Below, piece by piece: positions 628 to 31,458 of a stretch of DNA of 64,000 nucleotides. The position numbers were made by a program, and so were the translations under genes. The stretch's first letter is position 1, and every line of letters starts with the position of its first letter. The DNA comes from an uncultured Chloroflexia bacterium (GTDB taxonomy: Bacteria; Chloroflexota; Limnocylindria; QHBO01): NCBI GenBank assembly GCA_963825525.1, contig CAWGTN010000002.1:1536001-1600000 (forward strand). Direction: 5' to 3'. Under the pieces are notes generated by a model that did no database searches, had not been told where the DNA came from, and saw nothing but the letters and a program-made list of their open reading frames with translations.

Positions 628-650
628 GAACGAACGAACGAACGAACGAA
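628..650 (+). repeat. (GAAC)5GAA tetranucleotide tandem repeat
   Basis: Directly visible: gaacgaacgaacgaacgaacgaa, just upstream of the permease start. Confidence 0.9.
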
Positions 651-665
651 GAAAGAGACCGAACG

Positions 666-3483: not shown

Positions 3484-3584
3484 GTTCGGGCGGCGGCTCG
3501 TTGCGCGGTCGTGGGCGGCTCGTGGGCGGCGTTGTGACCAACGCTCTCCTGGTGCGCGTATGACGAGTGGTGGGCCCGCTACCT

Positions 3585-3706
3585 GACAACTGCCGGCCTG
3601 GTTCGCATTAGCGGGCGCTGCGCTCCAGGGCCGACTCAATCCGTGCTCATGCGGCGGGGTCTTAGGCACGACTGGTCGGCTAATGCGAACCAGGAGTGCA
3701 TATGGC
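3585..3706. repeat. Inverted-repeat element copy 1 (28-bp arms, 66-bp spacer)
   Basis: Left GACAACTGCCGGCCTGGTTCGCATTAGC (3585-3612), right GCTAATGCGAACCAGGAGTGCATATGGC (3679-3706); inner 16 bp are a perfect IR; related copies at 58938 and 59091. Confidence 0.9.
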
Positions 3707-3803
3707 AGGGCGCGCGCTGCCCACGCACGTGACGCGGGCCCCGCACGGCGCGCTCTGGCCCCCACTCGCCGCGCCGCCGCGCCTCAGCGAACTCCGAGCC
3801 AGC

Positions 3804-7589: not shown

Positions 7590-7644
7590 GCTCGGAGGAG
7601 TATCGACGGACGGGATGACGGCCGCTCGTCGATCGGTCCCCTCC

Positions 7645-16095: not shown

Positions 16096-17559
16096 TCAGA
16101 ATAGGCTCGACGCGGACACCTCGATCAGCTCCAGGACCCCGCCGGGGAAGAGGCCAAGGATGACCACCCCCGCCACCGAGAGCGCCAGTGCCACGGTGCC
16201 GAAGGGTGAGGTGTCGATGGGGGCGGGGTCGTCCTCCGGATCCCGCATGTACATGTAGACGATGACGCGAAGGTAGTAGAACGCGGCCATCGCGGCATTC
16301 AGGACGAGGATCACGGCAAGCCAGGCCAGCCCCGCGTCGACCGCCGCCAGCAGCACGTACAGCTTGGCGAAGAACCCGACCGTGGGTGGGATGCCGGTGA
16401 GGCTGAGCATGAGCACGCCCATCGCAGCGGCACGGGCCGGCGACCGCGACCCGAGGCCGGCGAACGAGTTCAGGCCGCCGAACCGCCGCGTGTCTCGCTG
16501 CAGCATGCCCACCACCGCGAAGGCGGCGATGTTCATCACCGCGTAGCCGAGGACGTAGAACAGCACCGACTCGATGCCCTGCGCGGCGGTCTCCGGGTCG
16601 GAGGCGTTGGCGAAGGCGGCCAGGCCCACCATGATGTAGCCGGTGTGGGCGATGCTCGAGTACGCCAGCATCCGCTTCACGTTGACCTGGGTGAGCGCGA
16701 CGACGTTCCCTACCGTCATCGTGAGCACGGTGAGCACCAGGAAGACGCCGATCCAGTCGGCGCGCAGCGGTGCGAGCGCCTCCGCGAAGACACGGACCAG
16801 GAGGGCAAAGGCCCCGAGCTTCGGGCCCACCGACAGGAATCCGGTGATCGGCGTCGGAGCGCCCTGGTAGGCATCCGGCGTCCAGTAGTGGAACGGGACC
16901 GCCGCGATCTTGAACGTGCCGCCCACGATGAGGAATCCGATGGCGATGAGCAGTGCGCCGCTCATGCGTCCCTCGAGGCCCGATGCCGCGATCTCCGCGA
17001 TGTTGGTGGTGCCGGTGAGCCCGTAGAGCCAGCTGATGCCGAACAGCACGATGGCGCTCGCGAAGCTTCCGAGCAGGAAGTACTTCAGCCCGCCCTCGTT
17101 GCTGTAGCGGTCCGTCTTGTGGAGGCCGGTGAGCAGGTAGGACGGCATCGTCATCAACTCGAGGCCAAGGAACAGGGTGATCAGGTCGGAGCTCGACGCG
17201 AGCACGAACATACCGAGCAGCGCGCTGAGCAGGATCATGTGGAACTCGCCCAGCGGGATCCTGCGCACGAGGAGGTAGGAGGGCGCGAACAGCACCGAGA
17301 TGACGCCGATGACCACCGTCGCCGCCTTGAAGAAGACGGACAGGTCGTCCACCACGTAGAAGCCGGCGTAGACGGTCTCGTTGACATCCCACACCACGAA
17401 CAGCGCGGCACCGACGAGGACGAGACCGGCCACCGTGAGCGGAGTGAGGATCCACTTGTCGGCACGCGCCAGGAACAGGTCGACCGTGATCACCGTGAGG
17501 ATGAGGACCACGAGCAGCAGCTCCGGCATGAGCGTGACGAGGTCGTCGATGTACGTCAT
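16096..17559 (-). CDS. nuoN: NADH-quinone oxidoreductase subunit N
   Basis: FKIAAVPFHYWTPDAYQGAP, KRMLAYSSIAHTGY, GIPPTVGFFAK. Confidence 0.95.
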   Translation of the reverse strand: MTYIDDLVTLMPELLLVVLILTVITVDLFLARADKWILTPLTVAGLVLVGAALFVVWDVNETVYAGFYVVDDLSVFFKAATVVIGVISVLFAPSYLLVRRIPLGEFHMILLSALLGMFVLASSSDLITLFLGLELMTMPSYLLTGLHKTDRYSNEGGLKYFLLGSFASAIVLFGISWLYGLTGTTNIAEIAASGLEGRMSGALLIAIGFLIVGGTFKIAAVPFHYWTPDAYQGAPTPITGFLSVGPKLGAFALLVRVFAEALAPLRADWIGVFLVLTVLTMTVGNVVALTQVNVKRMLAYSSIAHTGYIMVGLAAFANASDPETAAQGIESVLFYVLGYAVMNIAAFAVVGMLQRDTRRFGGLNSFAGLGSRSPARAAAMGVLMLSLTGIPPTVGFFAKLYVLLAAVDAGLAWLAVILVLNAAMAAFYYLRVIVYMYMRDPEDDPAPIDTSPFGTVALALSVAGVVILGLFPGGVLELIEVSASSLF

Positions 17560-17569
17560 GCGCAGCTCC

Positions 17570-19096
17570 TCACCACAGCGGCCCGAATGCGGTCAGGCCG
17601 GCACCACGGACTGCATCGAGGATCCGGTCGACCGGTGCCGCGATCAACTCGAGGACCGGCCCCGGATACACCCCGAGGGCCACGACCAGGATGATGAGGG
17701 GCGCCAGCGCGATCCATTCATTGCGATTGATGTCGCGCAGCGCCGGCCACGACTGGCGCATCCAGTCGGACGGCACGGTGAAGAAGACGCGCTGGAACAT
17801 CCACAGCATGTACACCGCGCTGATGATGACGACGATCATGGTCGCCGCGGCGATGAATCCATTGGCACGGAACGCCCCGAGAATCACGAGGAACTCCCCG
17901 ACGAACCCGGAAAGCCCGGGGAGCCCGATGCTGGCGAAGGTGAAGAGGCCGAACATCGCGGCATAGCGCGGGATACGGGCGTTGAGCCCGCCCATGTGGG
18001 CGATGAGCCGGTCATGGGTCTGCTCGTACAGGATCCCGACCAGCATGAACAGCGCGCCGGTGGTGATGCCGTGGCTGATCATCTGGTAGATCGCACCCTG
18101 CAGGCCCTGCTCGTTGAAGACGAACGCGCCGAGCATCACGAAGCCCATGTGACTGACGCTCGAGTACGCGACCAGCTTCTTCAGATCGGGCTGGACCATG
18201 GCGACCAGGCCGCCGTAGATGATGGCGATGATGGCGAGGCCGATGATGATCGGCGCGAAGCTGACGGCCGCGTCGGGCAGGAGCGGCAGGCTGAAGCGCA
18301 GGAACCCGTAGCCGCCGAGCTTCAGCATGACGCCGGCCAGGATGATCGAGCCGGCGGTCGGGGCCTCGACGTGCGCGTCGGGCAGCCAGGTGTGGAACGG
18401 CCACATCGGCACCTTGATCGCGAACGCCAGGAAGAAGGCGACGAAGGCCAGTGCCTGGAGCGTATCGGCGTAGGCGAATCCGCGGAGCGCCTCGTAGCTG
18501 AAGGTGAAGGGCTGGCCGCTTGCCGCGTGGGCGATGGCCACGGCCAGGATGGCGACGAGCATGAGCAGCGAGCCGACCAGGGTGTAGAGCACGAACTTCA
18601 CGGTGGCGTAGATGCGCCGTGGCCCGCCCCACACCCCGATGATCACGTACATCGGGAAGAGGCTGATCTCCCAGAAGACGTAGAACAGGAACATGTCGAG
18701 CGCCATGAAGACCCCGAGCATCCCGACCATCAGGAGCAGGAGCGCGATGTAGTACTCCTTGACCCGCTTCTGGATCGGCTCCCAGGAGTAGAAGAGGGCG
18801 ACCACGCTGAGGACGGTGGTCAGCAGCACCAGGACGACCGAGAGACCGTCCACGCCCAGCGTGTAGCGCATGCCGAAGGCCTCGATCCAGGGCAGGTCCT
18901 CCCTGAACTGGAACTCGGATGCCGCCGAGGAGGCGTCGTAGCCGAGCAGCACGAGCGAGAAGGCGAGGCTGGCCAGCGCCGCCCCGAGCGCCACCCAGCG
19001 GATGGCTCGGTGATTGGAGCTCGGAATCAGGAGGAGCAGCAGGACGCCGACGACCGGCATGAAGATGATGAGTGAGAGCACCGGCAGGCCTGTCAT
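17570..19096 (-). CDS. nuoM: NADH-quinone oxidoreductase subunit M
   Basis: LGVDGLS, FYVFWE, KVPMWPFHTWLPDAHVEAPTAGS, LPGLSGFVGE. Confidence 0.95.
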   Translation of the reverse strand: MTGLPVLSLIIFMPVVGVLLLLLIPSSNHRAIRWVALGAALASLAFSLVLLGYDASSAASEFQFREDLPWIEAFGMRYTLGVDGLSVVLVLLTTVLSVVALFYSWEPIQKRVKEYYIALLLLMVGMLGVFMALDMFLFYVFWEISLFPMYVIIGVWGGPRRIYATVKFVLYTLVGSLLMLVAILAVAIAHAASGQPFTFSYEALRGFAYADTLQALAFVAFFLAFAIKVPMWPFHTWLPDAHVEAPTAGSIILAGVMLKLGGYGFLRFSLPLLPDAAVSFAPIIIGLAIIAIIYGGLVAMVQPDLKKLVAYSSVSHMGFVMLGAFVFNEQGLQGAIYQMISHGITTGALFMLVGILYEQTHDRLIAHMGGLNARIPRYAAMFGLFTFASIGLPGLSGFVGEFLVILGAFRANGFIAAATMIVVIISAVYMLWMFQRVFFTVPSDWMRQSWPALRDINRNEWIALAPLIILVVALGVYPGPVLELIAAPVDRILDAVRGAGLTAFGPLW

Positions 19097-21288
19097 CAGC
19101 GCACCACCACCGCCAGCGCAACGAGCACGAGCACCAGGCCGGCGGCGATCCCCAGGCCATAGTTCTCGACTCGACCGGTCTGGACCTTCCGGAGCCCGCC
19201 GCCCACGGTCCGGGCCAGCCAACCGGCTCCGTTCACCGCGCCGTCGATGATCTTCACGTCGAACCACCACAGGGCGTTGCTGAGCAGGACGCCGCCGCGC
19301 GCCCAGACCAGCCCGTAGAGATCATCCACGTAGTACTTGTTCACGCTGGCCCGATACATCCCGGGCCCGAGGCCGAACGGGATGCGCTCCACGAAGCGCA
19401 CGGCCGACTCTGGTCGCTGCACGTACCAGCGATAGGCGAGCAGCACGCCGCCCACCGCGACCGCCGCCCCGATCAGCAGCAGCAGACCGCCGAGGCCGAA
19501 GAGCTCGAAGCCATGGTGCTCGCCATCCGCGATGGAACCGGCGAGGACCCCGGCATGCGACTCCTCGGCGGCATGGAAGATCTCCTCGAGCCAGCCGTGG
19601 ATCACGCCGCCCTCCGGCGGGATGCCGAGAATGAGACCCGCCAGGATGGTGGGCACGGCCAGGATCGCCAGCGGCGCGACCATGGTCGGGGCGCTCTCGT
19701 GGATGTGGTCCCAGGCCGCCTTCGGCCCGCGCCACTCGCCCCAGAACGTCATGAAGATCATGCGGAACGTGTAGAAGGCGGTCATGAAGGCGACGATGGT
19801 GCCCACGAGATAGAAGACGAGGTACCCGCGGTTGAAGGCCTCGGCCAGGATCTCGTCCTTGCTGAAGAAGCCGGAAAAGATCGGGATGCCGGCCAGCGCC
19901 AGCGAGCCGATGACCATGGTGATATAGGTCCAGCGCATCTTCGCCCGCAGGTTGCCCATGTAGCGCATGTCCTGCTCGCCGCCCGCCCCGTGGATGACGG
20001 AGCCCGAGCCCATGAACAGCAGGCCCTTGAAGAAGCCGTGGCTGACGAGATGGAAGATGGCGGCCACCCATGCGCCGATGCCGAGCGCGAAGAACATGTA
20101 CGCCAGCTGGCTGACGGTCGAGTAGGCCAGCACCTTCTTGATGTCGTTCTGGGTCAGGGCGATCGCCGCGGCAAAGATGGCGGTGAAGACGCCGATGATG
20201 GCCACCGTCCACATCGCGACCGGCGCCTCGGCAAAGATCGGGTTGGCGCGGGCGACCAGGTAGACCCCGGCGTTGACCATGGTCGCCGCGTGGATCAGCG
20301 CGCTGACCGGGGTGGGGCCCTCCATCGCGTCCGGCAGCCAGACGTGGAGCGGGAACTGGGCGCTCTTGCCCACGGCGCCGGCGAAGAGGAGCAGCGCGAT
20401 GACCGTGATCGTGGTCTCGTCGAGTGTCCCGATCCGCTCGAAGACCTCGTGGAAGCTCAGCGTCCCCAGGTTGACCCAGATCATCATGATGCCGAGCCCG
20501 AACCCGAAGTCGCCGACCCGGTTGACGATGAACGCCTTCTTGGCGGCCCCGGCGGCGGAGGGCTTCTTGTACCAGAAGCCGATCAGCGCGTAGCTGCACA
20601 GGCCGACGGCCTCCCAGCCGACGTAGAGCATCAGGAAGTTGTCGCCAAGGATCAGCAGCAGCATGCTGAACATGAAGAGGTTGAGGTAGGCGAAGAACCG
20701 CCAGAAGCCGCGGTCGCCGTCCATGTAGCCGATGGAATAGATGTGGACCAGGAATCCGACCGTGCTGACGACGAGCAGGAGCATGGCCGTCAGTGAGTCC
20801 ACCAGGAACGCGATCTCGATGGTGAAGTCGCCCGAGGCGATCCACTCGTAGATCGAGACCTCGTACTCGTTGCCACCGAACACGACGCTGGCGAACACGA
20901 TCATCGAGAAGACCCACATCAGGCCCACGACCGCGGTCGGCACGACCCACGATCGGTAGCGCGGCCGCTCGGCTCCCGGGGCCACGTGGCCGGCCTGGCC
21001 CAGGCCGTCGCTCATGTCGGACGGGATCACGCCATCGGCGCCCTCGGCGTTCGCAAGGTCATCGGCATGGCCGGCATGCGGGCTGGTGGCGCGCTGCTCT
21101 TCCTCGCTCGGGACCGGACGGAACGCAGAATCGTCGACCGCGTGGTCGTCGTGCGTCCCGTGCTCGGCATCGGCGTGTGCGTCGCCATGGCCGTGGCTCG
21201 GAACGCGGTCCAGCCTGGCTCCGGCGAGCACGGCGAACAGGAACCCGACCAGGGGCAGCGCGGGGATGAGGGCGATCAACAGCTCCAC
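19096..21288 (-). CDS. nuoL: NADH-quinone oxidoreductase subunit L, with His/acidic insertion after TM1
   Basis: GKSAQFPLHVWLPDAMEGPTPVSALIHAATMV, KKVLAYSTVSQL, HGFFKGLLF. Confidence 0.95.
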   Translation of the reverse strand: MELLIALIPALPLVGFLFAVLAGARLDRVPSHGHGDAHADAEHGTHDDHAVDDSAFRPVPSEEEQRATSPHAGHADDLANAEGADGVIPSDMSDGLGQAGHVAPGAERPRYRSWVVPTAVVGLMWVFSMIVFASVVFGGNEYEVSIYEWIASGDFTIEIAFLVDSLTAMLLLVVSTVGFLVHIYSIGYMDGDRGFWRFFAYLNLFMFSMLLLILGDNFLMLYVGWEAVGLCSYALIGFWYKKPSAAGAAKKAFIVNRVGDFGFGLGIMMIWVNLGTLSFHEVFERIGTLDETTITVIALLLFAGAVGKSAQFPLHVWLPDAMEGPTPVSALIHAATMVNAGVYLVARANPIFAEAPVAMWTVAIIGVFTAIFAAAIALTQNDIKKVLAYSTVSQLAYMFFALGIGAWVAAIFHLVSHGFFKGLLFMGSGSVIHGAGGEQDMRYMGNLRAKMRWTYITMVIGSLALAGIPIFSGFFSKDEILAEAFNRGYLVFYLVGTIVAFMTAFYTFRMIFMTFWGEWRGPKAAWDHIHESAPTMVAPLAILAVPTILAGLILGIPPEGGVIHGWLEEIFHAAEESHAGVLAGSIADGEHHGFELFGLGGLLLLIGAAVAVGGVLLAYRWYVQRPESAVRFVERIPFGLGPGMYRASVNKYYVDDLYGLVWARGGVLLSNALWWFDVKIIDGAVNGAGWLARTVGGGLRKVQTGRVENYGLGIAAGLVLVLVALAVVVR

Positions 21289-21298: not shown

Positions 21299-21604
21299 CT
21301 ACTCCTTCAGATCGGAGTACTGATCGACCTCGGCCGTCTGACGCGTCCGGATGATCGCAATCACCAACGCCAGGCCCACGGTCACCTCGGCTGCGGCGAC
21401 GGCCATGATCATGAGCGCGAAGACGGCGCCCGCATTCGAATCGGGTGGGAGGAAGGCGTTGAAGGCGACCAGGCTCAGGTTCACGGCGTTGAACATCAGC
21501 TCGATGCTGATGAGCATGAGGATCGCGTTGCGGCGGGCCATGAAGCCGAACGTCCCGATGCCGAACAGCATCACGGAGACGATGAGGTAGCCGGTGAGTC
21601 CCAT
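21299..21604 (-). CDS. nuoK: NADH-quinone oxidoreductase subunit K
   Basis: RRNAI..LISIELMFNAVN, AVAAAEVTVGLA. Confidence 0.95.
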   Translation of the reverse strand: MGLTGYLIVSVMLFGIGTFGFMARRNAILMLISIELMFNAVNLSLVAFNAFLPPDSNAGAVFALMIMAVAAAEVTVGLALVIAIIRTRQTAEVDQYSDLKE

Positions 21605-21606: not shown

Positions 21607-22116
21607 TCAGTTGGCCCGCTCGTCTTCTTCGGGACGTCGCGCCAGGTAGATGGCGCCGATGATGGCCACCAGGATCAGGAGGCTGATGATCTCGAACGGC
21701 AGCGCAAAGGTGGTGAACACCGCGTTGGCGATGGCGTCAACGGCCGCGGCGACCGGCTGCGGCAGCACGGACCAATCCGTCTGCACGACCGCCCATCCCA
21801 CGACGCCAATGAGGCCGAGCGCCACGACGGCCGCGATCGGAACCTGGCGGTGGAACGGTGCCGGCAGGTTCGCATCGCCAGCCTGGGTCAGCATGATGGC
21901 AAACAGGATGAGCACGCTGATCGCGCCCAGGTAGATGAGGACCTGGGCTGCCGCCACGATGGGGGCGCCGAGCAGCGCATACATCCCGGCCAGTGAGCCG
22001 AAGCAGATCATCATTGCCACGGCCGAATGGATGATGTTGCGCAGCGTCACCACGGCAATGCCGGCTCCCACAACGCCGATGGCGAGCAGGAAGAACAGGA
22101 CGCTGGAGATATCCAG
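21607..22116 (-). CDS. nuoJ: NADH-quinone oxidoreductase subunit J (probable CTG start)
   Basis: AAQVLIYLGAISVLILFAIML, LPFEIISLLIL; extension to CTG 22116 (9 nt after AGGAG) restores TM1 (DISSVLFFLLAIGVV). Confidence 0.9.
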   Translation of the reverse strand: MDISSVLFFLLAIGVVGAGIAVVTLRNIIHSAVAMMICFGSLAGMYALLGAPIVAAAQVLIYLGAISVLILFAIMLTQAGDANLPAPFHRQVPIAAVVALGLIGVVGWAVVQTDWSVLPQPVAAAVDAIANAVFTTFALPFEIISLLILVAIIGAIYLARRPEEDERAN

Positions 22117-22138
22117 GGTCGAATGCTCCTGAGAGAGG

Positions 22139-22183
22139 TTGAGCGCTCAAAACGGTCCCGCTCGGGGACCGCGCTCGATTCTA
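22139..22183 (-). promoter_or_regulatory. Putative internal promoter for nuoJKLMN
   Basis: Minus-strand -10 TAGAAT (22183-22178), leader hairpin at 22154-22170, 12-bp palindrome TTGAGCGCTCAA (22139-22150). Confidence 0.4.
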
Positions 22184-22272
22184 GCGCAGGCATTGCGTGG
22201 TCGCGCGCTGACCCCGTACCCTGCGCGGAACCGCCGACCCTGGCGGAGGAGTGGATGGAGGACGAGGTCACG

Positions 22273-22641
22273 ATGACGAGACGGACCGTTCCGGTACTCG
22301 CGGCGCTCGCGATCGCCCTGGCCGCATGCGGCGGCGGCGGCGGCGGAGGTGGCGCCAACGATGGCGCGGACAATCCGACCAAGGCCACGGTCGAGGCCGG
22401 TGCCGAGCGCGTTGCCTACCTGCTCGCCCCCGGACGGTACCGGATGACGATCAACGAGGACTGCGACGACTACACCATCGCGATCACCCAGGACGGCGGC
22501 GACTTCACGTACACCCTCGACAATTCGCCGATCCGTTTCGTCTTCGTGAACGACGTGCCGGCCGGCAGCTTCTTCATCGAGCAGACCAACGAGGCGTGCA
22601 CTGAGTGGAGCGTTGACCTCAGCAGAGTGAACGCCCCCTGA
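22273..22641 (+). CDS. Small lipoprotein, antisense within the nuo cluster
   Basis: MTRR + hydrophobic stretch + lipobox LAAC, poly-Gly linker, beta-rich domain with two Cys; SD GAGGT. Confidence 0.75.
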   Translation: MTRRTVPVLAALAIALAACGGGGGGGGANDGADNPTKATVEAGAERVAYLLAPGRYRMTINEDCDDYTIAITQDGGDFTYTLDNSPIRFVFVNDVPAGSFFIEQTNEACTEWSVDLSRVNAP

Positions 22642-22695
22642 TCCGACTCGGTGGTCACGCGGATGGCCCCTGAGCCGAAGATGGAACGAATTGGT

Positions 22696-22726
22696 GCGTC
22701 CGGCACGCCACACGAGTGCCGGACGC
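22696..22726. terminator. 11-bp stem-loop between convergent genes
   Basis: GCGTCCGGCAC-N9-GTGCCGGACGC. Confidence 0.5.
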
Positions 22727-22739
22727 TTCCCACGTCGGT

Positions 22740-25136
22740 CTAGCGGGTGGGGCGCTCCCGGTCGGACATCTCGAGAATGTCGAGCATCGGCAGGTCGCGC
22801 TGGTACTCGCTGAACTCGAACTCGGGGCCGCATCGCAGCGCGTCGTACGGACAGGCATCGGCGCAGATGCCACAGAAGATGCAGCGGCTGATATCGAGCT
22901 GGTAGGTCTCGAGGATGCGCGGGCGCGGCATGAGCGCGCCGACCGGGCAGGTCTCCGCGCATCGGCCACAGGAGACGCACGGCGTCTCGTTGAGTGACAC
23001 GAAGTCGGCGGTGGTGACCAGCGAGTCGAAGCCCTTGCCGATGAAGTCGTAGCAGCCGGCGCCCACGATCTCCTTGCAGACCTGGGCGCAGCGGCCGCAG
23101 TCGATGCAGCGGCTGTAGTCGCGCAGGATGAACGAATGCGTCTCGTCCCGGCCGTAGCCGTGGTTCACGCCGACGTACGGGTTGTCCTGGATCGAGCGCT
23201 CGTCGATCGCCATGTTCAGCGTCGTCTCGTACTCGATGGCCGCCTCGCGCAGGTCGCAGTGCCCGATCGCCTCGCAGGTGCACTGAAGGCATCGGCCCGC
23301 CTCGGCCATGGCCTGGTCGCCGGTGTAGCCGAACTCGTACTCGTTGAAGTTCGTGCGGCGCTCGTCGGCCTCCTGCTTGCCCATGATGGCGCGTGGTTCC
23401 TTCACGTCGTCGGTGAAGGGCACGATGGTCAGGAAGTTCGGCTGCGGCTCGGTGACGATGCGGCGCACCTGCGGGTCGTCGAGGTCATGGCCGCGCAGCC
23501 AGTAGTCCATGGCGTAGCTGGCGCGGCGTCCCTCGCCGATCGCCTCGACCACGGTGGCGGCGCCGGTCCGAACGTCGCCGGAGGCGAAGATCTTCGGGAC
23601 ATTGGTGCGGAAGATGTGCTCCTCGGCGACCAACGTGCCGCGGCGCGAGACCTCGAGGCCGGCCCGAATCTCCTCCGGCTCGGACTCGATCCATGACAGC
23701 TCGGGTCCCTGGCCGATGGCGCCGAGGACGGTGTCGCACTCGACGATGAACTCGGTGCCGGGCATCGGCTCGGGCCGACGGCGGCCCTGCGCATCGGGCT
23801 CGCCCAGCTTCATGCGCTGGAACTCGACGCCGTTCACCTTGTCATCGGCGCCGGTCACGATCCGCGTCGGTGCGGCCTGGAAGATGACGCGCGCGCCCTC
23901 CTCGATCGCCTCGTGCACCTCGTCGGCGGCGGGCATGTCCTTGAGGTCGCGGCGATAGACGAGCGTGACCTCCGCCGCGCCCTGCCGGACGCTGGTCCGG
24001 GTGCAGTCGATGGCGGTGAAGCCGCCGCCGATGACCACGACCCTCGCATTCTTCAGGCGCGGGACGGGGACGCCGCGGGTCGAGTTGTAGAGGTTCTCGA
24101 GGGCGTTGACCGTCCCATCGGCCTCTTCGCCCGGGATGCCGAGCTCGTTCGGCTTGTAGCAGCCGATGCCGACGTAGATGGCGTCGTAGTCGTCGATGAT
24201 GTCGCCCAGGTGGAAGTCACGACCGAGGCGCATGTTCGGCTTGAAGGTCGCGCCCAGCTCCCACACGTGGTTGAGCTCGCGGTCCATCCAGCCCTTGGGC
24301 AGCCGGTACTGGGGGATGCCGTAGCGCAGCATGCCGCCCTGCTCCGGGTCGGCCTCGTAGACGTCGCACTGATGGCCGCGCAGCTGGAGGTAATAGGCCG
24401 CGGTCATGCCGGCCGGTCCGGCGCCGATGATCGCCACCTTGCGACCGGTGGGCGGATCCTTCGGCCACGGAATCGGGGCAGGGGCGTCCACTTCGAGCAC
24501 CCGGTCGGCGCAGTAGCGATGCGAGTCACGGATGGCGATGGCCGTGTCGACTTCCTCACGGCGGCAGTGCGTCTCGCACGGAGCGGGACACACGCGGCCG
24601 AGGATGGCGGGGAAGGGAAGGGAGCGCTTGAGGATGCGCGTCGCCTCTTCCCAGTTGCCCAGGGTGTTCTGCTTCAGGTAGCCCGGGATATCGACGCGGG
24701 TGGGGCACTTGAACTGGCACGGGGGAAGGCAGTAGGCGTCGTGGTCGCTGAAGATGAGCTCGAGGACCATGCGACGGTTCTCGATGACCCGCTCGGAGTG
24801 GGTGGTGATGACCATCCCCTCCTCGATGGTCGTTCCGCAGCTGATGGGTGTGTCGTCGCGACCCTCGACCTCGACCGCGCAGATGCGGCAGGCGCCGTAC
24901 GGCGCGAGCTTGGGCTCGTAGCACAGGGTCGGGACGTCGATCCCCAGCACGCGACAGGCCTGGAGGATGGTCTGTCCCTCCTCGACCTGGAGCTCCTTGC
25001 CGTTGATGGTGACGCCGATCTCGCGCGTCCCGGGCACCATCGGCCAGATCGGGGTGTAATCGGCACTCGGGCCGTCACCCGCGCTGCCGTTGCCTGCCCC
25101 GTGGCCGTTCGTTCCGTTCGTCGTTCCGAAGCCCAT
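22740..25136 (-). CDS. NuoG-N-terminal Fe-S / GltD-like FAD-NAD(P)H oxidoreductase / NuoI C-half fusion
   Basis: 2Fe-2S motif CYEP..GACRIC..SC; PPCQFKCP and GRVCPAPCETHC; IIGAGPAG; GGGFTAIDC..YRR; RCLQCTC..HCDL; two CxxCxxCxxxC motifs; C-terminal YQLDISRCIFCGICADACPYDALRCGPEFE. Confidence 0.9.
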   Translation of the reverse strand: MGFGTTNGTNGHGAGNGSAGDGPSADYTPIWPMVPGTREIGVTINGKELQVEEGQTILQACRVLGIDVPTLCYEPKLAPYGACRICAVEVEGRDDTPISCGTTIEEGMVITTHSERVIENRRMVLELIFSDHDAYCLPPCQFKCPTRVDIPGYLKQNTLGNWEEATRILKRSLPFPAILGRVCPAPCETHCRREEVDTAIAIRDSHRYCADRVLEVDAPAPIPWPKDPPTGRKVAIIGAGPAGMTAAYYLQLRGHQCDVYEADPEQGGMLRYGIPQYRLPKGWMDRELNHVWELGATFKPNMRLGRDFHLGDIIDDYDAIYVGIGCYKPNELGIPGEEADGTVNALENLYNSTRGVPVPRLKNARVVVIGGGFTAIDCTRTSVRQGAAEVTLVYRRDLKDMPAADEVHEAIEEGARVIFQAAPTRIVTGADDKVNGVEFQRMKLGEPDAQGRRRPEPMPGTEFIVECDTVLGAIGQGPELSWIESEPEEIRAGLEVSRRGTLVAEEHIFRTNVPKIFASGDVRTGAATVVEAIGEGRRASYAMDYWLRGHDLDDPQVRRIVTEPQPNFLTIVPFTDDVKEPRAIMGKQEADERRTNFNEYEFGYTGDQAMAEAGRCLQCTCEAIGHCDLREAAIEYETTLNMAIDERSIQDNPYVGVNHGYGRDETHSFILRDYSRCIDCGRCAQVCKEIVGAGCYDFIGKGFDSLVTTADFVSLNETPCVSCGRCAETCPVGALMPRPRILETYQLDISRCIFCGICADACPYDALRCGPEFEFSEYQRDLPMLDILEMSDRERPTR

Positions 25137-25156: not shown

Positions 25157-26521
25157 CTAAGCGCCCGCCGCCGGATCGACTCCGGCAAGAGGCTCGAGAA
25201 GAGGGTGGACGCCGTCGGTGCGGCAGGCGCCGGCCAGGCATTCGCCGCGTTCCGCGTGCGCCCGGTACTCATCGGTGAATCGATCGAGGGTGGTGAGGAT
25301 CGGTCCCGATGCGAGCCGCTCCAGCTTGCAGAGCGCCGTGTCGCTCACCTTGCGCGACAGCTCGCGCAGGAGGTTGAAGTCGTTCGGCCGCGGCGTGGCT
25401 GCGAGGATGCGATCCATGGTCTCGACCAGGCGCTTCGTGCCGATCCGGCACGGGACCGCCTTGCCGCATGCCTCCCGCGCGTTGAAGTCGATGAAGAATC
25501 GGGCGGTGTCGACCATGCAGGTGGCGCTGTCGGTGACGAGCACCGATCCGGAGCCGATGATGGCGCCCGCTTCCTCGAGCGACTCGTAGTCGAACGGCAT
25601 GTTGAGCGAGCCGGCGTCGATGGCCCCACCACCCGGACCGCCGACAAACAGCGCCTTGGTGGTGCCGGTCCCGCCGCCCGCCATTCCGAGCAGGTCGATG
25701 AGCGGTGTTCCCAGCGGCACCTCGACGAGGCCCGGGGTGCCGACGCGGCCCATGATCGTGACGAGCTTGGTGCCGTGGCTGCCTTCGCTCCCAACCGACG
25801 CGAACGCATCCGGCGAGTGGGCCATGATCCATGCCACATGCGCCAGCGTCTCGCCGTTCTGGACGACGGTCGGGGCGCCGTTCAGCCCCTTCTGGGCCGG
25901 GTACGGTGGCCTGATGAGCGGCATGCCGCGGTCGCCGGAGAGGGCGTTGATGAGCGCCGTCTCCTCGCCCGCCACGTAGGCGCCGGAGCCCTCCCACACG
26001 CTGAGCTGGACGCTGGTGTCCGTGCCCAGCACGAGGTAGCCACCCAGGTGCGCATCGGTCGCCTCCGCGATGGCGGCTTGAAGGCGCTCGATGGCGACGG
26101 TCCAGTCACGCCGCACGGCGATGATCGCCTCGCTGGCGCCGGCCGCATACGCCGCAATGACGAGTCCCTCGACGATCAGATGTGGGTTGCCCTCGGCCAG
26201 GGCGCGGTCGCCGAGTGCGCTGGGATCTGCCGCCATGAGGTTGGCGACCACCACCCTGCGATCTCCCGGGGCATCACGCGCGACCCGCCACTTCGCCGCG
26301 GTCGGGAACCCCGATCCGCCGCGACCGCGAAGTCCCGCCGCCTCGATGTCACGAATGACCTCCTCGGGCGCCAGCTTGGTGATGGCGCGCTCGAGTCCGG
26401 CGTACCCGCCGTGCTCGCGGTAGCTCGCGAGGCTGCCCGGGTCAACACGGCCGATGTCGGTCAGGAGACGCGGCTCTCCCTCGGTGAGGATCCGGATCTG
26501 TGGCGAGAGGGTGCCGGTCAT
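25157..26521 (-). CDS. nuoF: NuoF/HydB-like flavoprotein subunit, divergent
   Basis: GLRGRGGSGFPT..KW, GAYVAGEETAL, PPYPA..GL.G.PT; NADEGEPG replaced by NLMAADPS; N3 motif reads CGKAVPC..C. Confidence 0.85.
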   Translation of the reverse strand: MTGTLSPQIRILTEGEPRLLTDIGRVDPGSLASYREHGGYAGLERAITKLAPEEVIRDIEAAGLRGRGGSGFPTAAKWRVARDAPGDRRVVVANLMAADPSALGDRALAEGNPHLIVEGLVIAAYAAGASEAIIAVRRDWTVAIERLQAAIAEATDAHLGGYLVLGTDTSVQLSVWEGSGAYVAGEETALINALSGDRGMPLIRPPYPAQKGLNGAPTVVQNGETLAHVAWIMAHSPDAFASVGSEGSHGTKLVTIMGRVGTPGLVEVPLGTPLIDLLGMAGGGTGTTKALFVGGPGGGAIDAGSLNMPFDYESLEEAGAIIGSGSVLVTDSATCMVDTARFFIDFNAREACGKAVPCRIGTKRLVETMDRILAATPRPNDFNLLRELSRKVSDTALCKLERLASGPILTTLDRFTDEYRAHAERGECLAGACRTDGVHPLLEPLAGVDPAAGA

Positions 26522-27354
26522 GCTCGGTCACGACCCCCGGCCGGCGCGGCCGCCCGGCGCTCACCGACGATGTGCAGGGCCTTCTCTTCGTCGAGCGGGC
26601 CGTACACGAGGGTATCGATCCGCATGGCCGGGCTCAGCGCCCCGGCGCCGACGTCGGGTCGTGTCTCGAGCGAGAACCGGCCGTCTGCCGTCGTCTCGCC
26701 GGGCCGGATGCCGAGCTCCCGTTCGATCGCCGAGAGCAGGCGATCGCCGCCGGCGAACCGACAGGAGGCGCAGTCGCACACCGTCACCAGGTGGCCACTG
26801 GCCGGCAGCAGGCGGAATCCACCGAGTCCGGCGGCACCGAAGACCTGGGCCCAATGGATCGTCATTCGGTCGCTGATCCGGCGCAGTGCCCGCTCCGGGA
26901 GATAGCCATATCGCTCCTCGATGGCGCGGAAGATGGCAACCAGCGCCTCGGGGCGTCCGCCGAACCCGTCAATGACCTGGTCCACGAACGGCGTGTCGAT
27001 CGCCTCGTCCCAGCGCGCCGCGTTTCGCATCGGTTTGGCCTCCAGACCGGCACGTCGATAGGCGTTGGGATCCTTGCGCTCGTCATAGATCTCCGGCATG
27101 CCGTAGCGGATCCGGTTGCCGGTCGAGTCGAACCCGCTCATGTCGATGGCCTCGACCGGACAGACCTGGGCGCACTGGAAGCACACCTCGCACTTGTGCT
27201 CCCCGAACGGGTCGTAGATCAGGTCGAGACGGCCGCGCCAGCGATCGGGGATCTCGGGGCGCTGCTCCGGATACTGCCGCGTCACCTTCGGCGCGAAGAA
27301 GTTCCGCAGGGTCGTCGCCATGCCCTTCGCGATGCCGGAGCCGGGAAATGCCAT
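26518..27354 (-). CDS. NuoI N-half / NuoE-like fusion protein
   Basis: GMATTLRNFF..KVTRQYPE...RWRGR...CEVCFQCAQVCPVEAI (first NuoI half), then NuoE-like YGYLPE, VTVCDCASC, GETTADGRFSLE; SD AGGAGG. Confidence 0.85.
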   Translation of the reverse strand: MAFPGSGIAKGMATTLRNFFAPKVTRQYPEQRPEIPDRWRGRLDLIYDPFGEHKCEVCFQCAQVCPVEAIDMSGFDSTGNRIRYGMPEIYDERKDPNAYRRAGLEAKPMRNAARWDEAIDTPFVDQVIDGFGGRPEALVAIFRAIEERYGYLPERALRRISDRMTIHWAQVFGAAGLGGFRLLPASGHLVTVCDCASCRFAGGDRLLSAIERELGIRPGETTADGRFSLETRPDVGAGALSPAMRIDTLVYGPLDEEKALHIVGERRAAAPAGGRDRA

Positions 27355-27366: not shown

Positions 27367-28377
27367 CTACAGGTCGAAGACGACCACGGCGATGGCCGTG
27401 ATGAACAGGTTGACGAGGGCGAGAGGCAACAGGACCTTCCACGCCATGCCCATGAGCTGATCCACGCGCATGCGGGGCAGGGTGGCGCGCAGCCAGACCG
27501 CGATGGACACGAAGATGTAGGTCTTGAGGAAGAACCAGAAGATGCCATAGAGGGTGCCGCCGAATCCATCGAGCTGTGCCGGGAACGGCCAGGGCGCCAG
27601 CCAGCCGCCGAAGAAGAGGCTGACCAGGATGCCGCTCATGATGAACAGCGCGACGTACTCGGCGAAGAAGAAGAACCCGAAGCGCATCCCCGAGTACTCG
27701 GTGAAGGGGCCGGCCACCAGCTCCGAGTCTGCCTCGACCATATCGAACGGGGTCCGGTTCACCTCCGCCAATGAGCTGATGTAGAAGATGCCGAGGCCGA
27801 CCGGTTGCCACACCAGGAGCCAGCCATGGTCCCGCTGCCAGGCGATGAGCTCGCTGAAGTTCAGCGTGCCGGCCAGGACCACCGCCCCCACGATCGAGAG
27901 GGTGAGCGGAATCTCGTAGCTCACCATCTGGGCCGCCGCGCGCAGCCCGCCGAGGAGCGAGTACTTGTTGTAGCTCGCCCAGCCGGCCACGAGGAGCCCC
28001 ACAACCGAGAGGCCGAGCACCGCGAAGAAGTAGACGATGCCGATGTTGAAGTCGGCGGCGACGGCACCCGGCGCGAACGGGATCACGAGCATGCTCATCG
28101 CCGCGGCCATGTAGACCATCCACGGCGCGAGGGTGAACGTCCCGCGGTCCGCCTGGTCGGGCACCGTGTCCTCCTTGGCGAGGACCTTGAACCCGTGGAT
28201 CGTGCTCTGGAAGATGCCGCGCGGACCGATGCGGTTCGGTCCGAAGCGCAGGTTCATCTGGGCGATGATCTTCATCTCCATCTGGATGATGACGAACGCC
28301 GTCGGAACGGTGAGCAGCAGCAGCAGCGTCGTCGCCAGGATGAATCGGCCGAGGCCGAGAAGCAGCTCGAAGTCCAT
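27367..28377 (-). CDS. nuoH: NADH-quinone oxidoreductase subunit H
   Basis: RFGPNRIGP, NKYSLLGGLRAAAQMVSYE, NRTPFD..EADSELVAG..TEYSG, RATLPRMRVDQL. Confidence 0.95.
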   Translation of the reverse strand: MDFELLLGLGRFILATTLLLLLTVPTAFVIIQMEMKIIAQMNLRFGPNRIGPRGIFQSTIHGFKVLAKEDTVPDQADRGTFTLAPWMVYMAAAMSMLVIPFAPGAVAADFNIGIVYFFAVLGLSVVGLLVAGWASYNKYSLLGGLRAAAQMVSYEIPLTLSIVGAVVLAGTLNFSELIAWQRDHGWLLVWQPVGLGIFYISSLAEVNRTPFDMVEADSELVAGPFTEYSGMRFGFFFFAEYVALFIMSGILVSLFFGGWLAPWPFPAQLDGFGGTLYGIFWFFLKTYIFVSIAVWLRATLPRMRVDQLMGMAWKVLLPLALVNLFITAIAVVVFDL

Positions 28378-28380: not shown

Positions 28381-29664
28381 CTACTTGTCCACGCCGCCCA
28401 TGACCGGGTCGAGGCTGGCCATCACCGCCATGGTGTCGGCGACCAGCCGGCCCGGCATGAGCTTCGGCAGTGCCTGGAGGCTGATGAAGCTGGGATCGCG
28501 CATCCGGAAGCGGTACGGGTTCGGGCCTCCGTCGCTGATGGCATAGACGCTGTACAGGCCGCGTGGCGACTCGACCGCGCCGTACGCGCGGCCCGGCCGT
28601 GGACGGATGATGCCGGGGACCTGGGCCTGCACCGCCCCGTGGGGCATCTTGTCGATGATCTGGTCGATGAGGTGGATGCTCTGCTTGATCTCGGCGATGC
28701 GCTGCAGGTAGCGGGAGTAGGAATCTCCGCCCTCCTGGGTGATGACGTCGAACTCGAGCTCGTTGTAGATCGAGTAGGGCTTCGCCTTGCGGACATCGAA
28801 GGGGACGCCGGATGCTCGCAGGTTCGGACCGGTGACGCCGAGACTGATGGCCTCCTGGCCGGTGAGCGTGCCCATGTTGATCGTCCGTGCTCGGAAGATC
28901 TCGTTCTCGGTGATCATGTGCTCGTTCATCTCGATGTTCTTCATGACGTTGCCGCGCCACGTGCCGAGACGGCTGAGGAACTCGTCGTTGGTGTCGAAGT
29001 TCACGCCACCCACGCGGAAGAAGTTGAAGAGCATGCGCTGGCCGCTGATGGCCGACAGCATGTCGACGATCTCGTCGCGATTGATGAACGCGTAAAGGAT
29101 CGGGGTGATGCCGCCCATGTCGAGCGCCAGGAAGCCCATCATCAGCCCGTGGCTGAAGATGCGATTCAGCTCCACGACCAGTGCGCGGATGTACTCGGCG
29201 CGCGGCGGTGCCTTGATGCCGTACAGCTTCTCGAACGCGATGGCCGGTGCATGCTCGTTGTGCATGGTCGACAGGTAGTCCATGGGGTCCACGTAGGTGA
29301 GAACGGTGGTGTACGTCGCGTTCTCGCACAGCTTCTCGATGCCGCGATGGAGGTAGCCAAGGACGGGGTCGATGTCGACGATGATCTCGCCGCGAACCTT
29401 GACCACCAGCCGCATCACGCCGTGGGTCGACGGGTGCTGCGGCCCCATGTTCACGAGCATCTCCCCCTCGTCCAGGGTGTAGACCTCGCGCTCCCGTTCC
29501 GTCTGGGGTGGTCGATCCGGGATCCCGACCTGGTCGAAGCCCGCGTACTCGCCCGCACTCGTTCGGACCGGCGTCAGGCCGGCGACCGCGCGGAGGCGTT
29601 CCTCTTCGAGCCGATCCAGCTCGATCGGGTCGGGGATTCGCGTCTCCGGATCCACGCTCGTCAT
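28381..29664 (-). CDS. nuoD: NADH-quinone oxidoreductase subunit D
   Basis: NMGPQHPSTHGVMRL, GYLHRGIEK, GPNLRASG, ESPRG, SLDPVMGGVDK. Confidence 0.95.
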   Translation of the reverse strand: MTSVDPETRIPDPIELDRLEEERLRAVAGLTPVRTSAGEYAGFDQVGIPDRPPQTEREREVYTLDEGEMLVNMGPQHPSTHGVMRLVVKVRGEIIVDIDPVLGYLHRGIEKLCENATYTTVLTYVDPMDYLSTMHNEHAPAIAFEKLYGIKAPPRAEYIRALVVELNRIFSHGLMMGFLALDMGGITPILYAFINRDEIVDMLSAISGQRMLFNFFRVGGVNFDTNDEFLSRLGTWRGNVMKNIEMNEHMITENEIFRARTINMGTLTGQEAISLGVTGPNLRASGVPFDVRKAKPYSIYNELEFDVITQEGGDSYSRYLQRIAEIKQSIHLIDQIIDKMPHGAVQAQVPGIIRPRPGRAYGAVESPRGLYSVYAISDGGPNPYRFRMRDPSFISLQALPKLMPGRLVADTMAVMASLDPVMGGVDK

Positions 29665-30254
29665 CGCGCGCCGCTCCCGTTGGAATCCGTTGGCGCTTCC
29701 GTCGCGCCCGGCGTGTCGCGGTAGCGGGAGAGGTCCCAGGTCGCGGGCCGCTCGAGCGGGTTCACGCCAGCGGCGGGAGAGTCGGCCGCGTCATCCGGCA
29801 GAAGAAAGTCACGACGCTGCGGAAAGGAGCGGTAGTCGGGGCTCATGTAGATGCGCCGAAGGTCGCGATTGCCGTCGAAGATGATGCCCATCATGTCGTA
29901 CATCTCGCGCTCGTGGAACATCGCCCCCTCCCACAGGTCGGTGATGGTGGGGATGCGCGGATCATCGCGGTCCACGTCGGCACGGATGCGGAGCCAGCCG
30001 GGATGCTTCCAGCTGAACAGGTGGTACACCACCTCGAAGCGCTCCCCGAGTCCGTAGTCGACCGCCGCGGCGTCGGCAAGCATGAAGAAGTCGAGATCGT
30101 CATCGTCGCGCAGGGTCTTGAGGACGTCATGGGCACGGGGCGCACTGACCCGGTACTCGACGGTGTCCTCGTCGGTCCACAGGTCGCGAAGGTCGTCACC
30201 GAGACGCTCGGCCAGCGCCCGGACGAGCGCGCCGGCCGCGGCGGACGTGGTCAG
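29661..30254 (-). CDS. nuoC: NADH-quinone oxidoreductase subunit C (probable CTG start)
   Basis: [38 protein letters not shown]; CTGA overlap with nuoB stop and SD GAAGGAG 7 nt upstream. Confidence 0.9.
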
Positions 30255-30910
30255 CGGACGTCTCCTTCCCAGTTGGTTCGCTGCGGGCCTCGATCCACGT
30301 ACGTGCTCCACTGGCCTCGGCGCTGCTTGACCAGCTCGTGCAGCTTCATCATTCCGTAGATCAGGCCCTCGGGGCGCGGTGGGCAGCCCGGCACGTACAC
30401 GTCGACCGGCATGACCCGATCCACGCCCTGGACCACGCTGTACGAACGCTTGAAACGGCCACCGGATGTCGTGCAGGTGCCCATGGCCACGCACCACTTG
30501 GGCTCGGGCATCTGCTCCCACAGCCGGACGAGCGGCCCGGCCATCTTCGTGGTCAGCGTGCCGGCCACGATCAACACGTCCGCCTGCCGTGGGCTGGCGC
30601 GGAACGGGAACATCCCGAATCGGTCGATGTCGTTCACGCTCGTGGCCGTGCTCATCATCTCGATGGCGCAGCAGCTGAGCCCCGACAGCAACGGCCAGAG
30701 CGAGTTGGCTCGAATGAGGTCGAGGATGTAGTCGGCCTTGGTCGGGATGACCTCGAGCAGGCCGTGGAATCCGCCCTGCGGATGCTCCTCCATCCCGAAC
30801 TCGCGCAGCAGGTCGCTGTCCGCGGCCTGGTCGGGAATGACGATCGGTCCGTTGCCGGGGGTCGACATCAGTTCGGTCGAGCTCCCGGTTGTTGGTCGGT
30901 CTACTGCCAT
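30251..30910 (-). CDS. nuoB: NADH-quinone oxidoreductase subunit B
   Basis: [44 protein letters not shown]. Confidence 0.95.
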
Positions 30911-31260
30911 CGCAGGTCCCCCTTCTTCCACGCGTACAGCTCACCGAACATGAGGATGGCCAGGAAGATGCCGATCAGGACGATCCCCTGGAACTCGAGC
31001 GACCGCACGGTGATCGCCCACAGGTATACGAAGATGATCTCCACGTCGAAGGCCACGAACAGCAGGGCGTATAGGTAAAAGGCAAGTCCGAATCGGCTCC
31101 AGGTGTCGCCGATCGTGTCCACCCCGGACTCGTACGGCAGGCCCTTCTGGGGACGCCGGCGCCGATGGGTGATCAGCCAGCTGAACAGGATCGTGCCGAA
31201 GACGAAGGTCGTCGCGGCAAACGCGAATCCGATGACGTAGAGCAGTCCGGTGTGATCCAT
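30901..31260 (-). CDS. nuoA: NADH-quinone oxidoreductase subunit A
   Basis: [31 protein letters not shown]. Confidence 0.95.
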
Positions 31261-31458
31261 CTCCACTCCGGTTGCACGCGGTGCAGTTGCGTGTCGGGCA
31301 GCGGCCCGACGCTGAGGTTCGTCGTTGGTGGAGCGGTGCGGCGCTGCGTGCACGGCCCGCTCGTTTCACAGTCTAGCAGGGGCGTTCCGCCTCGTGGCCG
31401 CACCGTTCTCGACCATTCCCGCGGTGCGCACCGATATTTCGCCGATAGTTCTGCCGGA

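Follow-up and report, generated by a model that had tools for sequence, protein, structure and literature searches.

An NfnA-like flavoprotein that carries half of NuoI is probably an input subunit of an unusual complex I in Limnocylindria

Introduction

Which electron donor feeds a complex I whose operon carries a second flavoprotein in place of NuoG? The question is raised by a stretch of 64,000 nucleotides (hereafter, the window; contig CAWGTN010000002.1, positions 1,536,001 to 1,600,000) from an uncultured Chloroflexia bacterium of the class Limnocylindria. Within it, a nuo operon lies entirely on the minus strand, with the gene order nuoABCDH-IE-F-G'-JKLMN. Here, IE and F denote two genes described below, and G' denotes the gene at 22740-25136 (-), which encodes a protein of 798 residues from an ATG start. 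To our knowledge, complex I is considered specific for NADH (reduced nicotinamide adenine dinucleotide) at a single flavin mononucleotide (FMN) site, and the use of NADPH, the phosphorylated form, has so far been achieved only by engineering. The original prediction for this DNA was that an NfnA-like flavoprotein replaces NuoG and makes the complex a candidate NADPH oxidiser.

Here we report that G' probably brings electrons, by way of flavin and iron-sulfur clusters, into an unusual respiratory complex I that would use NADPH beside NADH. Our preferred reading, to which we give a probability of about 0.6, is a proton-pumping NAD(P)H:quinone oxidoreductase in which a three-protein module of the Nfn/Stn type has been inserted into nuoI, and in which a branch that ends blindly in the soluble Nfn enzymes serves as the outlet. 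The homology of the domains, the division of NuoI, the conservation of ligands, the synteny and the distribution are all read from the DNA itself.

Results

G' combines a NuoG-type domain, a GltD-like flavoprotein and a NuoI half

We annotated G', all parts of which are on the minus strand, as an NfnA/StnC-like flavo-iron-sulfur subunit whose C-terminal end is half of NuoI. The protein opens with a NuoG/HydA-type [2Fe-2S] domain (residues 38-114, 24795-25025; Pfam Fer2_4, E 4.2e-20) with four invariant cysteines (C72, C83, C86 and C100). It continues with the first part of a His-ligated [4Fe-4S] motif (residues 121-137, 24726-24776; H132 and C136), where NADH-G_4Fe-4S_3 (PF10588) matches at model positions 1-17 of 40 only and covers H132-x3-C136 of the string SDHDAYC. 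A GltD/DPD-type iron-sulfur domain then occupies residues 137-215 (24492-24728; Pfam Fer4_20 model positions 29-110, and the alignment to 9bov_A), with C140, C144, C183, C187, C191 and H206 as its putative ligands. Next come the two Rossmann folds for flavin adenine dinucleotide (FAD) and NAD(P)H (residues 233-536, 23529-24440; Pfam Pyr_redox_2, E 4.4e-28), which include GAGPAG (238-243), R278, GGGFTAIDC (370-378) and VYRR (393-396).

Residues ~592-628 (23253-23363) hold the displaced start of the GltD iron-sulfur motif (C616, C619), followed by the remainder of the His-cluster motif (C621, C627), both within RCLQCTCEAIGHC (615-627). A second Fer4_20 match, to model positions 1-37, falls on this segment (contig 1559253-1559360). 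At each of the two junctions, H132-x3-C136 / C140-x3-C144-P and C616-x2-C619 / C621-x5-C627, the NuoG His motif is thus interleaved with the GltD iron-sulfur motif. The rest of the HxxxCxxCxxxxxC motif thus lies ~480 residues downstream, and the contiguous form seen in NuoG is absent. The original prediction had placed a NuoG-type [2Fe-2S] domain at the N-terminus and a GltD-like block inside the His-ligated motif; both are found, with the motifs it quoted in their places and Fer4_20 pieces at both junctions.

The flavoprotein block is followed by a 2x[4Fe-4S] ferredoxin-like domain (residues 670-735, 22932-23129; C677/680/683/687 and C720/723/726/730; Pfam Fer4_7 and Fer4_Nqo3), and Pfam dicluster matches of the Fer4 type span residues 670-768. 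Where two [4Fe-4S] motifs had been counted after the block, we found three CxxCxxCxxxC motifs (677-687, 720-730 and 752-762). The third lies outside the NuoG-like domain and matches the second half of NuoI. The molybdopterin-like C-terminal domain of NuoG is missing, as had been claimed: Pfam gave no match to a molybdopterin family in G', and the protein stops at residue 798. The Pfam scan proposed along with the original prediction returned all of the expected domains, namely Fer2_4, Fer4_20, Pyr_redox_2 and those of the Fer4 type.

Across an alignment of 38 homologues, the most distant at 59% identity, none of the cysteines and histidines of the quoted motifs varied. All 26 Cys/His residues that we assigned to clusters in G' were invariant, as were the four in the NuoI half of IE, and the second Rossmann motif and R278 (the equivalent of StnC R239) were conserved. 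Whole-protein family models scored under their cut-offs. The NuoG model TIGR01973 gave 103.5 bits (cut-off 470.05), with residues 42-136 aligned to model positions 1-95 of 606, and the GltD models TIGR01317 and TIGR01318 gave 333.6 (482.95) and 219.3 (447.7) bits. The PRK12814 model (NF009454, putative NADPH-dependent glutamate synthase small subunit) reached 547.1 bits (cut-off 916) and was collinear with G' over residues 39-690 (model positions 3-631 of 657).

The source genome also encodes a paralogue of G' outside the window, a 666-residue open reading frame (ORF; contig 1641593-1643425) with a GltD-like block and Fer4 motifs. It is 33% identical to G' 136-748 and has no [2Fe-2S] domain. 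Frames of ~660-700 residues resembling it turned up in most genomes of the family in our search with the NuoI model.

NuoI is split between IE and G'

The window's nuo operon contains neither a nuoI gene nor a separate nuoE gene. The two are represented in part by IE (26518-27354, -), a 278-residue protein in which the N-terminal half of NuoI is joined to a thioredoxin-fold domain of the NuoE/NfnC type. The NuoI half of IE comprises residues 1-83 (27106-27354, -; C55, C58, C61 and C65-P66), and residues 11-83 match positions 1-72 of the 121-position NuoI model TIGR01971 (E 4.7e-15, 55.2 bits). The other half forms the C-terminus of G' (residues 740-798, 22743-22919, -; C752, C755, C758 and C762-P763) and begins ~20 residues past the last cysteine of the ferredoxin-like domain; here residues 740-781 match positions 71-112 of the same model (E 5e-15, 55.2 bits). 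Neither half reaches the cut-off of 113 bits, and no single polypeptide carries both CxxCxxCxxxCP motifs; together, the halves cover the model. When we compared both proteins by blastp with the intact NuoI that the source genome encodes in another nuo operon, IE 10-70 aligned with the region of the first Cys motif and the G' segment YQLDISRCIFCGICADACPYDAL with that of the second.

In a 2x[4Fe-4S] ferredoxin fold, each cluster is held by three cysteines of one motif together with a single cysteine of the other. Because each NuoI cluster draws cysteines from both motifs, equivalents of N6a and N6b would form only if IE and G' associate. We regard the split as the strongest argument at the sequence level that the flavoprotein module belongs to the membrane complex. 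That the module belongs there had been part of the original prediction, and the NuoI half carried by G' supports it as far as sequence can tell. A complex prediction for G' 655-798 with IE 1-112, run with our own alignments, gave a median of 0.31 against a mark of 0.32, and we used it neither for nor against binding.

The same split was seen in the family of the source organism. An intact NuoI over the family cut-off was found in one of 21 family genomes, namely the source genome itself, where it belongs to the extra canonical operon. Among the remaining 20 family genomes, at least 18 had a match to positions 1-67/77 of the NuoI model, and at least 17 had one to positions 71-112. One genome (G438) has an additional NuoI match of 96 bits, at positions 25-121.

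The module is related to soluble NfnABC and StnABC

We searched the sequences of the Protein Data Bank with the three module proteins, and the nearest entries for all three were soluble, electron-bifurcating transhydrogenases, namely NfnABC from Caldicellulosiruptor (9bov), StnABC from Sporomusa (8oh5) and an archaeal NfnABC (9n5u). Residues 39-762 of G' aligned collinearly with residues 3-699 of NfnA (9bov_A; E 6.6e-168, 564 bits), and StnC also matched (8oh5_C; E 1.9e-153), which bears out the replacement of NuoG by an NfnA-like flavoprotein. F (25157-26521, -), a truncated FMN subunit of 454 residues like NfnB and BfuB, aligned at residues 20-436 with NfnB 107-526 of 584 and scored 424 bits, compared with 286 and 275 bits for the best NuoF chains. 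For IE 116-263, the best match was NfnC. The E and F subunits thus appear, by these alignments, to be derived from Nfn/Bfu proteins rather than from NuoE and NuoF.

The likeness to NfnABC/StnABC extends to the layout. There are three subunits, encoded in the order C-like, B-like, A-like, and G' holds everything from the [2Fe-2S] domain through the GltD/NfnL block inside the His-cluster motif and the FAD to the 2x[4Fe-4S] domain. The insertion of GltD into the His motif is the standard architecture of NfnA/StnC and no peculiarity of G' (PMC10482914). The differences are equally clear. G' lacks the ~430-residue Fdh-like C-terminal domain and the A5 cluster of NfnA/StnC (798 residues versus 1178 and 1172), the NuoI halves being fused on instead. 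F lacks the N-terminal thioredoxin-like and C-terminal 2x[4Fe-4S] domains of NfnB, with the loss of domains B2-B4, and also its Bfu signatures AFM and F281. Unlike the genes of the soluble enzymes, those of the G' module lie inside a nuo operon. Finally, the FAD-proximal cluster of NfnA/StnC, held by three cysteines and a lysine (PMC11829005), has Lys170 as a ligand where G' has the invariant H206.

The functions of these relatives guide the reading of G'. NfnA and StnC have been shown experimentally to oxidise NADPH at the equivalent FAD (PMC11829005, PMC10482914), which is described as no site of bifurcation (PMC10482914; PMC12018979). Electrons follow the path FAD-A7-A6-A3-A2-A1-B1-FMN, with A2 as the Y centre (PMC11829005; PMC12018979; PMC10482914). 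The third arm of soluble NfnA, A4(-A5), has been called a dead-end, non-functional remnant (PMC11829005), and the Fdh-like domain mediates tetramerisation in the soluble Nfn/Stn enzymes (PMC10482914).

Might the GltD-like flavin site of G' serve another substrate, such as NADH or a redox protein? GltD/NfnL-type domains do have various partners, and the NCBIfam matches of G' (AegA, YgfK and DPD-like) are all under cut-off. We nevertheless find this quite improbable, as the NADPH-oxidising NfnA and StnC are by far the best matches and the stretch GGGxTAxD...YRR...MPA is invariant among the aligned homologues.

The operon has the genes and motifs expected of a quinone-reducing complex I

Upstream of IE, on the minus strand like the rest of the operon, lie nuoA (30901-31353; Pfam Oxidored_q4), nuoB (30251-30931; Oxidored_q6), nuoC (29661-30476, start uncertain; Complex1_30kDa), nuoD (28381-29664; Complex1_49kDa) and nuoH (27367-28377; NADHdh, E 1e-109). 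The translation of nuoB contains the Cys motifs of cluster N2. That of nuoD shows the His of HPSTHG and the Tyr of PMDYL, which we take, from Thermus Nqo4, to be quinone-site residues. Downstream of G' come nuoJ (21607-22071; Oxidored_q3), nuoK (21299-21604; identified from its tblastn matches in the second nuo operon and in relatives), nuoL (19096-21288; matches to the same operon and to relatives), nuoM (17570-19270, with a true start probably near 19099) and nuoN (16096-17559). The operon thus has the N2 cysteines of NuoB, the His and Tyr of NuoD, NuoH and the antiporter-like NuoL/M/N, as a quinone-reducing complex I does. NuoL has a His/Asp-rich stretch near its N-terminus (residues ~30-110), and its matches to the NuoL of the canonical operon and of the Thermoleophilia type, described below, start only at residue ~105-150.

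Between G' and nuoJ, a small lipoprotein-like ORF (22273-22641, +), for which no Pfam family was found, would split the nuo cluster into two transcription units. Its product has a signal peptide with a Cys after LAA. The gap between G' and nuoJ measures 154-7599 base pairs (bp), with variable content, in the window's clade, ~250-350 bp in a clade at 60% identity, and is also short in Thermoleophilia-type loci. When 21900-22900 was scanned, no site resembled a promoter, and a single terminator-like site fell within nuoJ.

This interruption bears on whether the module is bound to the membrane arm at all. A soluble NfnABC-like enzyme that merely sits within the nuo cluster would fit the opposite-strand gene and the variable gap, and the closest solved relatives are soluble. 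The operon, however, has no nuoI of its own and places the NuoI halves within IE and G', a NuoI match over the cut-off occurs in only one of 21 family genomes, and the same gene order is found in two phyla; G' also lacks the Fdh-like domain through which the soluble enzymes tetramerise (PMC10482914). Taken together, these points make a free enzyme highly improbable.

The split-NuoI operon is the usual complex I of the family

We scanned one genome per GTDB species with a sequence pattern and obtained at least 598 matches, of which at least 580 encode a relative. The best 80 of these relatives, almost all of them labelled as Limnocylindria or as Chloroflexota metagenome-assembled genomes, were used for the synteny counts. 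IE lies upstream of G' in 69/69 loci with at least 2.4 kb of upstream sequence, as a single fused high-scoring segment pair in 66/69, and F adjoins in 64/69 of these Limnocylindria loci. Downstream, nuoJ follows G' in 58 of the 80 loci, and most of the other 22 end too early.

Among 401 sampled Chloroflexota genomes, a fused IE was present in all members of three families of the window's class (17/17, 23/23 and 4/4) and absent in two genomes of a fourth family. For 355 genomes of other Chloroflexota classes, there was none among the 150 matches listed. Within the window's family, 18 of the other 20 genomes gave one nuoH match. Judged by gene content, most members of the family thus appear to have no complex I besides that of the split-NuoI operon. 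Since intact NuoI, a second nuoH and a canonical NuoG are rare there, this operon must supply the function of complex I.

The source genome is unusual in having a second, canonical nuoA-N operon at contig ~3-18 kb, outside the window. A NuoG like that of the canonical operon, with its molybdopterin domain, was found in 0/20 other genomes of the family and in 2/60 other genomes of the class, and the DNA of this operon had no match above 77% identity in 10 other genomes of the same genus. Its nuoF shifts reading frame between contig positions 7073 and 7081. Recent acquisition, a copy that is turning into a pseudogene, or an artefact of assembly or binning could each account for the canonical operon. 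We rejected the idea that the source organism needs both nuo operons, because the canonical one is not shared by the family genomes.

Two further observations concern the class. In a sister family (f4; genomes G325, G317, G406 and G402), the single high-scoring nuoH lies in a cluster nuoA-nuoC-like-nuoH-nuoJ-K-L-M-N, with membrane genes 44-54% identical to those of the window and with no nuoB, nuoD, NuoI half, E, F or G' adjoining. In several genomes of the 60% clade (G124, G205, G365, G397, G079, G261 and others) and in locus L036 (7656-9938), the IE match falls in open frames of ~690-765 residues, which suggests either an IE-F fusion or chance frames of DNA rich in guanine and cytosine.

A second lineage carries the same arrangement with a full BfuB

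A HMMER scan with IE revealed further full-length fusions of the NuoI N-terminal half with NuoE, at 27-37% identity. For one of these families (P0145), the genes on metagenome contigs are again arranged as nuoABCDH-IE-F-G'-JKLMN. Of the loci of this type, 79/80 have a fused IE, with nuoH upstream in 68/68 and F downstream in 47/47; G' reaches into the NuoI half in 21/21, with nuoJ next in 21/21. Labels on six of the 120 listed relatives of the second-lineage G' read Thermoleophilia (four), Actinobacteria (one) and, for a partial entry, 'Deltaproteobacteria' (one), and we refer to these loci as Thermoleophilia-type. Four more families of such fusions (P0164, P0169, P0222 and P0142) have 251-280 residues and are 27-37% identical to the window's IE; P0164 is without the usual TxxYP start of NuoI.

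One Thermoleophilia-type locus (L106) illustrates the fuller form. Its IE (253 residues) corresponds to NuoI positions 3-66 and keeps all four NuoE cysteines, and its G' (824 residues) ends in NuoI positions 69-114. Its F is a full BfuB of 632 residues, with the thioredoxin-like N-domain, the C-terminal 2x[4Fe-4S] domain, AFM, the Phe, GGPSG and a complete CGKCxPC. The Bfu signatures AFM, Phe281 and GGPSG are those given in PMC12018979.

The membrane arm of the window is closer to this second lineage (median identity 54% for nuoL, 52% for nuoM, 46% for nuoH and 52% for nuoK) than to the canonical operon of its own genome (39%, 37%, 38% and 44%, respectively). Thus, module and pump together constitute one type of operon.

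A proposed route for electrons

For the nucleotide, the direction of flow, the exit route and the FMN activity of F, we infer the following model. A module of the NfnABC/StnABC type (NfnC-like E, NfnB-like F and NfnA-like G') would have entered nuoI at a point between the two [4Fe-4S] motifs, an insertion that would have left the first half of NuoI at the N-terminus of E and the second at the C-terminus of G'. IE and G' would meet on the Q-module, rebuild N6a/N6b and so anchor the flavoprotein module to the membrane complex.

Electrons from NADPH would enter at the FAD and pass through the [4Fe-4S] cluster held by three Cys and H206, the second GltD-type cluster and the His-ligated cluster (H132) to a central Y-junction cluster. 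Those from NADH would enter at the FMN of F and reach the same junction through a three-Cys cluster and the [2Fe-2S] cluster. From the junction, the predicted route leads through the second cluster of the ferredoxin-like domain and the split NuoI clusters to N2 and quinone, while NuoL/M/N would pump protons. We propose the third arm as the outlet because, in the G' polypeptide, the A4-type motif (C720-C730) is followed immediately by the NuoI half (C752-C762).

Trimmed F and E subunits, and other points that weigh against the model

Several observations weigh against this model, and the first group concerns the FMN side. In all 68 Limnocylindria F sequences, the N3-type motif is without its second Cys (CGK[A/T]xPC), and NLMA/NGYE stands for NADE by the flavin. 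In the window's IE, the NuoE/NfnC-like domain (residues 125-264, 26563-26982, -; Pfam 2Fe-2S_thioredx, E 2.9e-25) has C193-x-C195-xx-C198 and an incomplete N1a motif, since the second Cys pair of the NuoE type, CxxxC, is absent. That pair is missing from 67/67 Limnocylindria sequences; these have an extra Cys (C-x-C-xx-C) together with an Asp, or one Cys, at the first lost position. The F sequences also have ALG for AFM and Tyr for Phe281 (n=68), and they keep the Gly-rich FMN loop, GEET, RPPYP and GGPxG. We read the trimming of F and E as the loss of the bifurcating apparatus, that is, of the low-potential branch by way of C1, B3 and B4 (PMC11829005, PMC12018979). The direction, towards a reduced derivative, is taken from the comparison of domains and motifs. 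With these sites eroded, the NADH branch may be weak or dead.

The same observations could mean that the complex oxidises NADPH only, with F and E kept as scaffolds on the Q-module and NADH left to NDH-2. The missing N3 and NuoE cysteines, the changed NADE and the lost AFM and F281 signatures (PMC12018979) all favour this, as do the intact ligands of G' and a candidate NDH-2 in the source genome. Two features speak against it. Clades only ~42-47% identical all retain the Gly-rich FMN loop, GEET (whose Glu reportedly selects for NADH), RPPYP and the Arg that corresponds to NfnB R303, and a link to F is the only known role of the [2Fe-2S] cluster of G', with its four invariant Cys. We therefore consider a complex that is specific for NADPH rather unlikely, and prefer two nucleotide inputs.

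A second difficulty is geometric. In canonical complex I, as in the Thermus structure, the His-ligated cluster feeds NuoI. In G' the GltD block sits at that cluster, so the proposed exit would need a different docking geometry. Tethering by both NuoI halves may permit such a geometry and may replace the lost interface of the NuoG C-domain.

The third group is physiological. Burning NADPH in respiration would be unusual, and the NADPH specificity of G' is argued from homology and from the rule that links the YRR motif to NADPH. The source genome encodes PntB besides the candidate NDH-2, so that neither an outlet for NADPH nor the oxidation of NADH strictly requires the G' complex. As PntB is present, we also rejected the notion that the complex stands in for an absent transhydrogenase.

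Reverse or sideways operation has to be weighed here as well. The proton-motive force could drive electrons from quinol to NADPH, the alternative that the original prediction itself had offered, or an FMN-FeS-FAD wire clamped to complex I could act as a transhydrogenase from NADH to NADP+ or from NADPH to NAD+. Both flavins would lie on one chain of clusters, and the module derives from reversible transhydrogenases, StnABC also having NADPH:NAD+ activity (PMC10482914). Such operation is unlikely in our view. PntB is there for transhydrogenation, F retains neither a donor nor an acceptor domain of low potential (B3/B4), and most of the family has no complex I other than that of the split-NuoI operon. 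The labels of the family and the soil-metagenome DNA runs that hold this stretch are moreover consistent with aerobic heterotrophs, which its members presumably are.

Lastly, RNA libraries lend no expression support for the source organism. Four runs from three studies gave contig pieces of ~140-310 nucleotides, mostly 90-95% alike and scattered over the operon; these pieces belong to relatives, other than the source organism, and Logan contigs of this kind carry no information on transcription, strand or co-transcription.

Discussion

The complex proposed here shares with canonical complex I the series of flavin, [2Fe-2S], His-ligated cluster, 2x[4Fe-4S] NuoI, N2 and quinone, as well as the same membrane and Q-module genes. 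It differs in its second flavin, in a NuoI distributed over two proteins, in the absence of the molybdopterin-like domain, and in gene order (A-B-C-D-H-IE-F-G'-J... here, ...D-E-F-G-H-I-J in the canonical operon).

Two other systems come close. A 14-subunit (A-N) complex I with a BfuABC module, Nuo-Bfu, has been predicted in Geobacter, Planctomycetes and Nitrospirae (PMC9304861). It likewise has a Bfu-family module in place of NuoEFG in a nuo cluster and has been proposed to be membrane-bound and proton-pumping; the main text of PMC9304861 mentions no NADPH-binding BfuA, split of NuoI, NuoI or Actinobacteria. In the mbx-like operons of Thermotoga and some proteobacteria, a GltD-related flavoprotein takes the place of NuoI (PMC4758237), so that there, too, a GltD-type NAD(P)H flavoprotein sits on a complex-I-like membrane module at the position of NuoI. 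Those complexes, however, are of the Mrp/Mbx type, with NuoI substituted outright, no NuoE/F partners and no split NuoI, whereas the window has a quinone-reducing nuo operon of 13 genes. Our literature search yielded no account of a split NuoI, nor of a nuo operon that contains an Nfn-type module; clusters of this kind may appear in the supplementary tables of PMC9304861 and PMC4453560. An input module of the Bfu family on complex I has already been proposed in print, and the split cofactor domain and the second flavin, as predicted from the genes, would set the window's type apart.

More broadly, these operons could represent a widespread natural energy-converting NADPH(+NADH):quinone oxidoreductase in which the third branch of the Bfu Y serves as a wire to the pump, and the Thermoleophilia-type form, in which the bifurcating NfnBC core is complete and its ferredoxin-reducing domain retained, could couple four redox partners, NADPH, NADH, ferredoxin and quinone, to the proton gradient. 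We hold this view tentatively, at somewhat less than even odds. If the Thermoleophilia-type reading is true, that form would be a membrane-bound, quinone-linked bifurcating or confurcating transhydrogenase. For the field of electron bifurcation, our model suggests what the 'dead-end' cluster branch of NfnA/StnC might be for. The split of NuoI would be a rare and clear case of a module inserted in the middle of a cofactor-binding domain, with two [4Fe-4S] clusters built across a protein-protein interface, and it offers structural biology a defined test of how the N-module docks.

At present, these genes are annotated as 'FAD-dependent oxidoreductase', 'formate dehydrogenase major subunit' or 'NuoE'. 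Annotation pipelines that depend on finding NuoG and NuoI would score organisms with a split-NuoI operon as being without complex I. If our reading is true, they have instead a natural lineage of complex I with a second, NADPH-type flavin, which is apparently the sole complex I of an abundant class of soil and freshwater bacteria and recurs in a second phylum.

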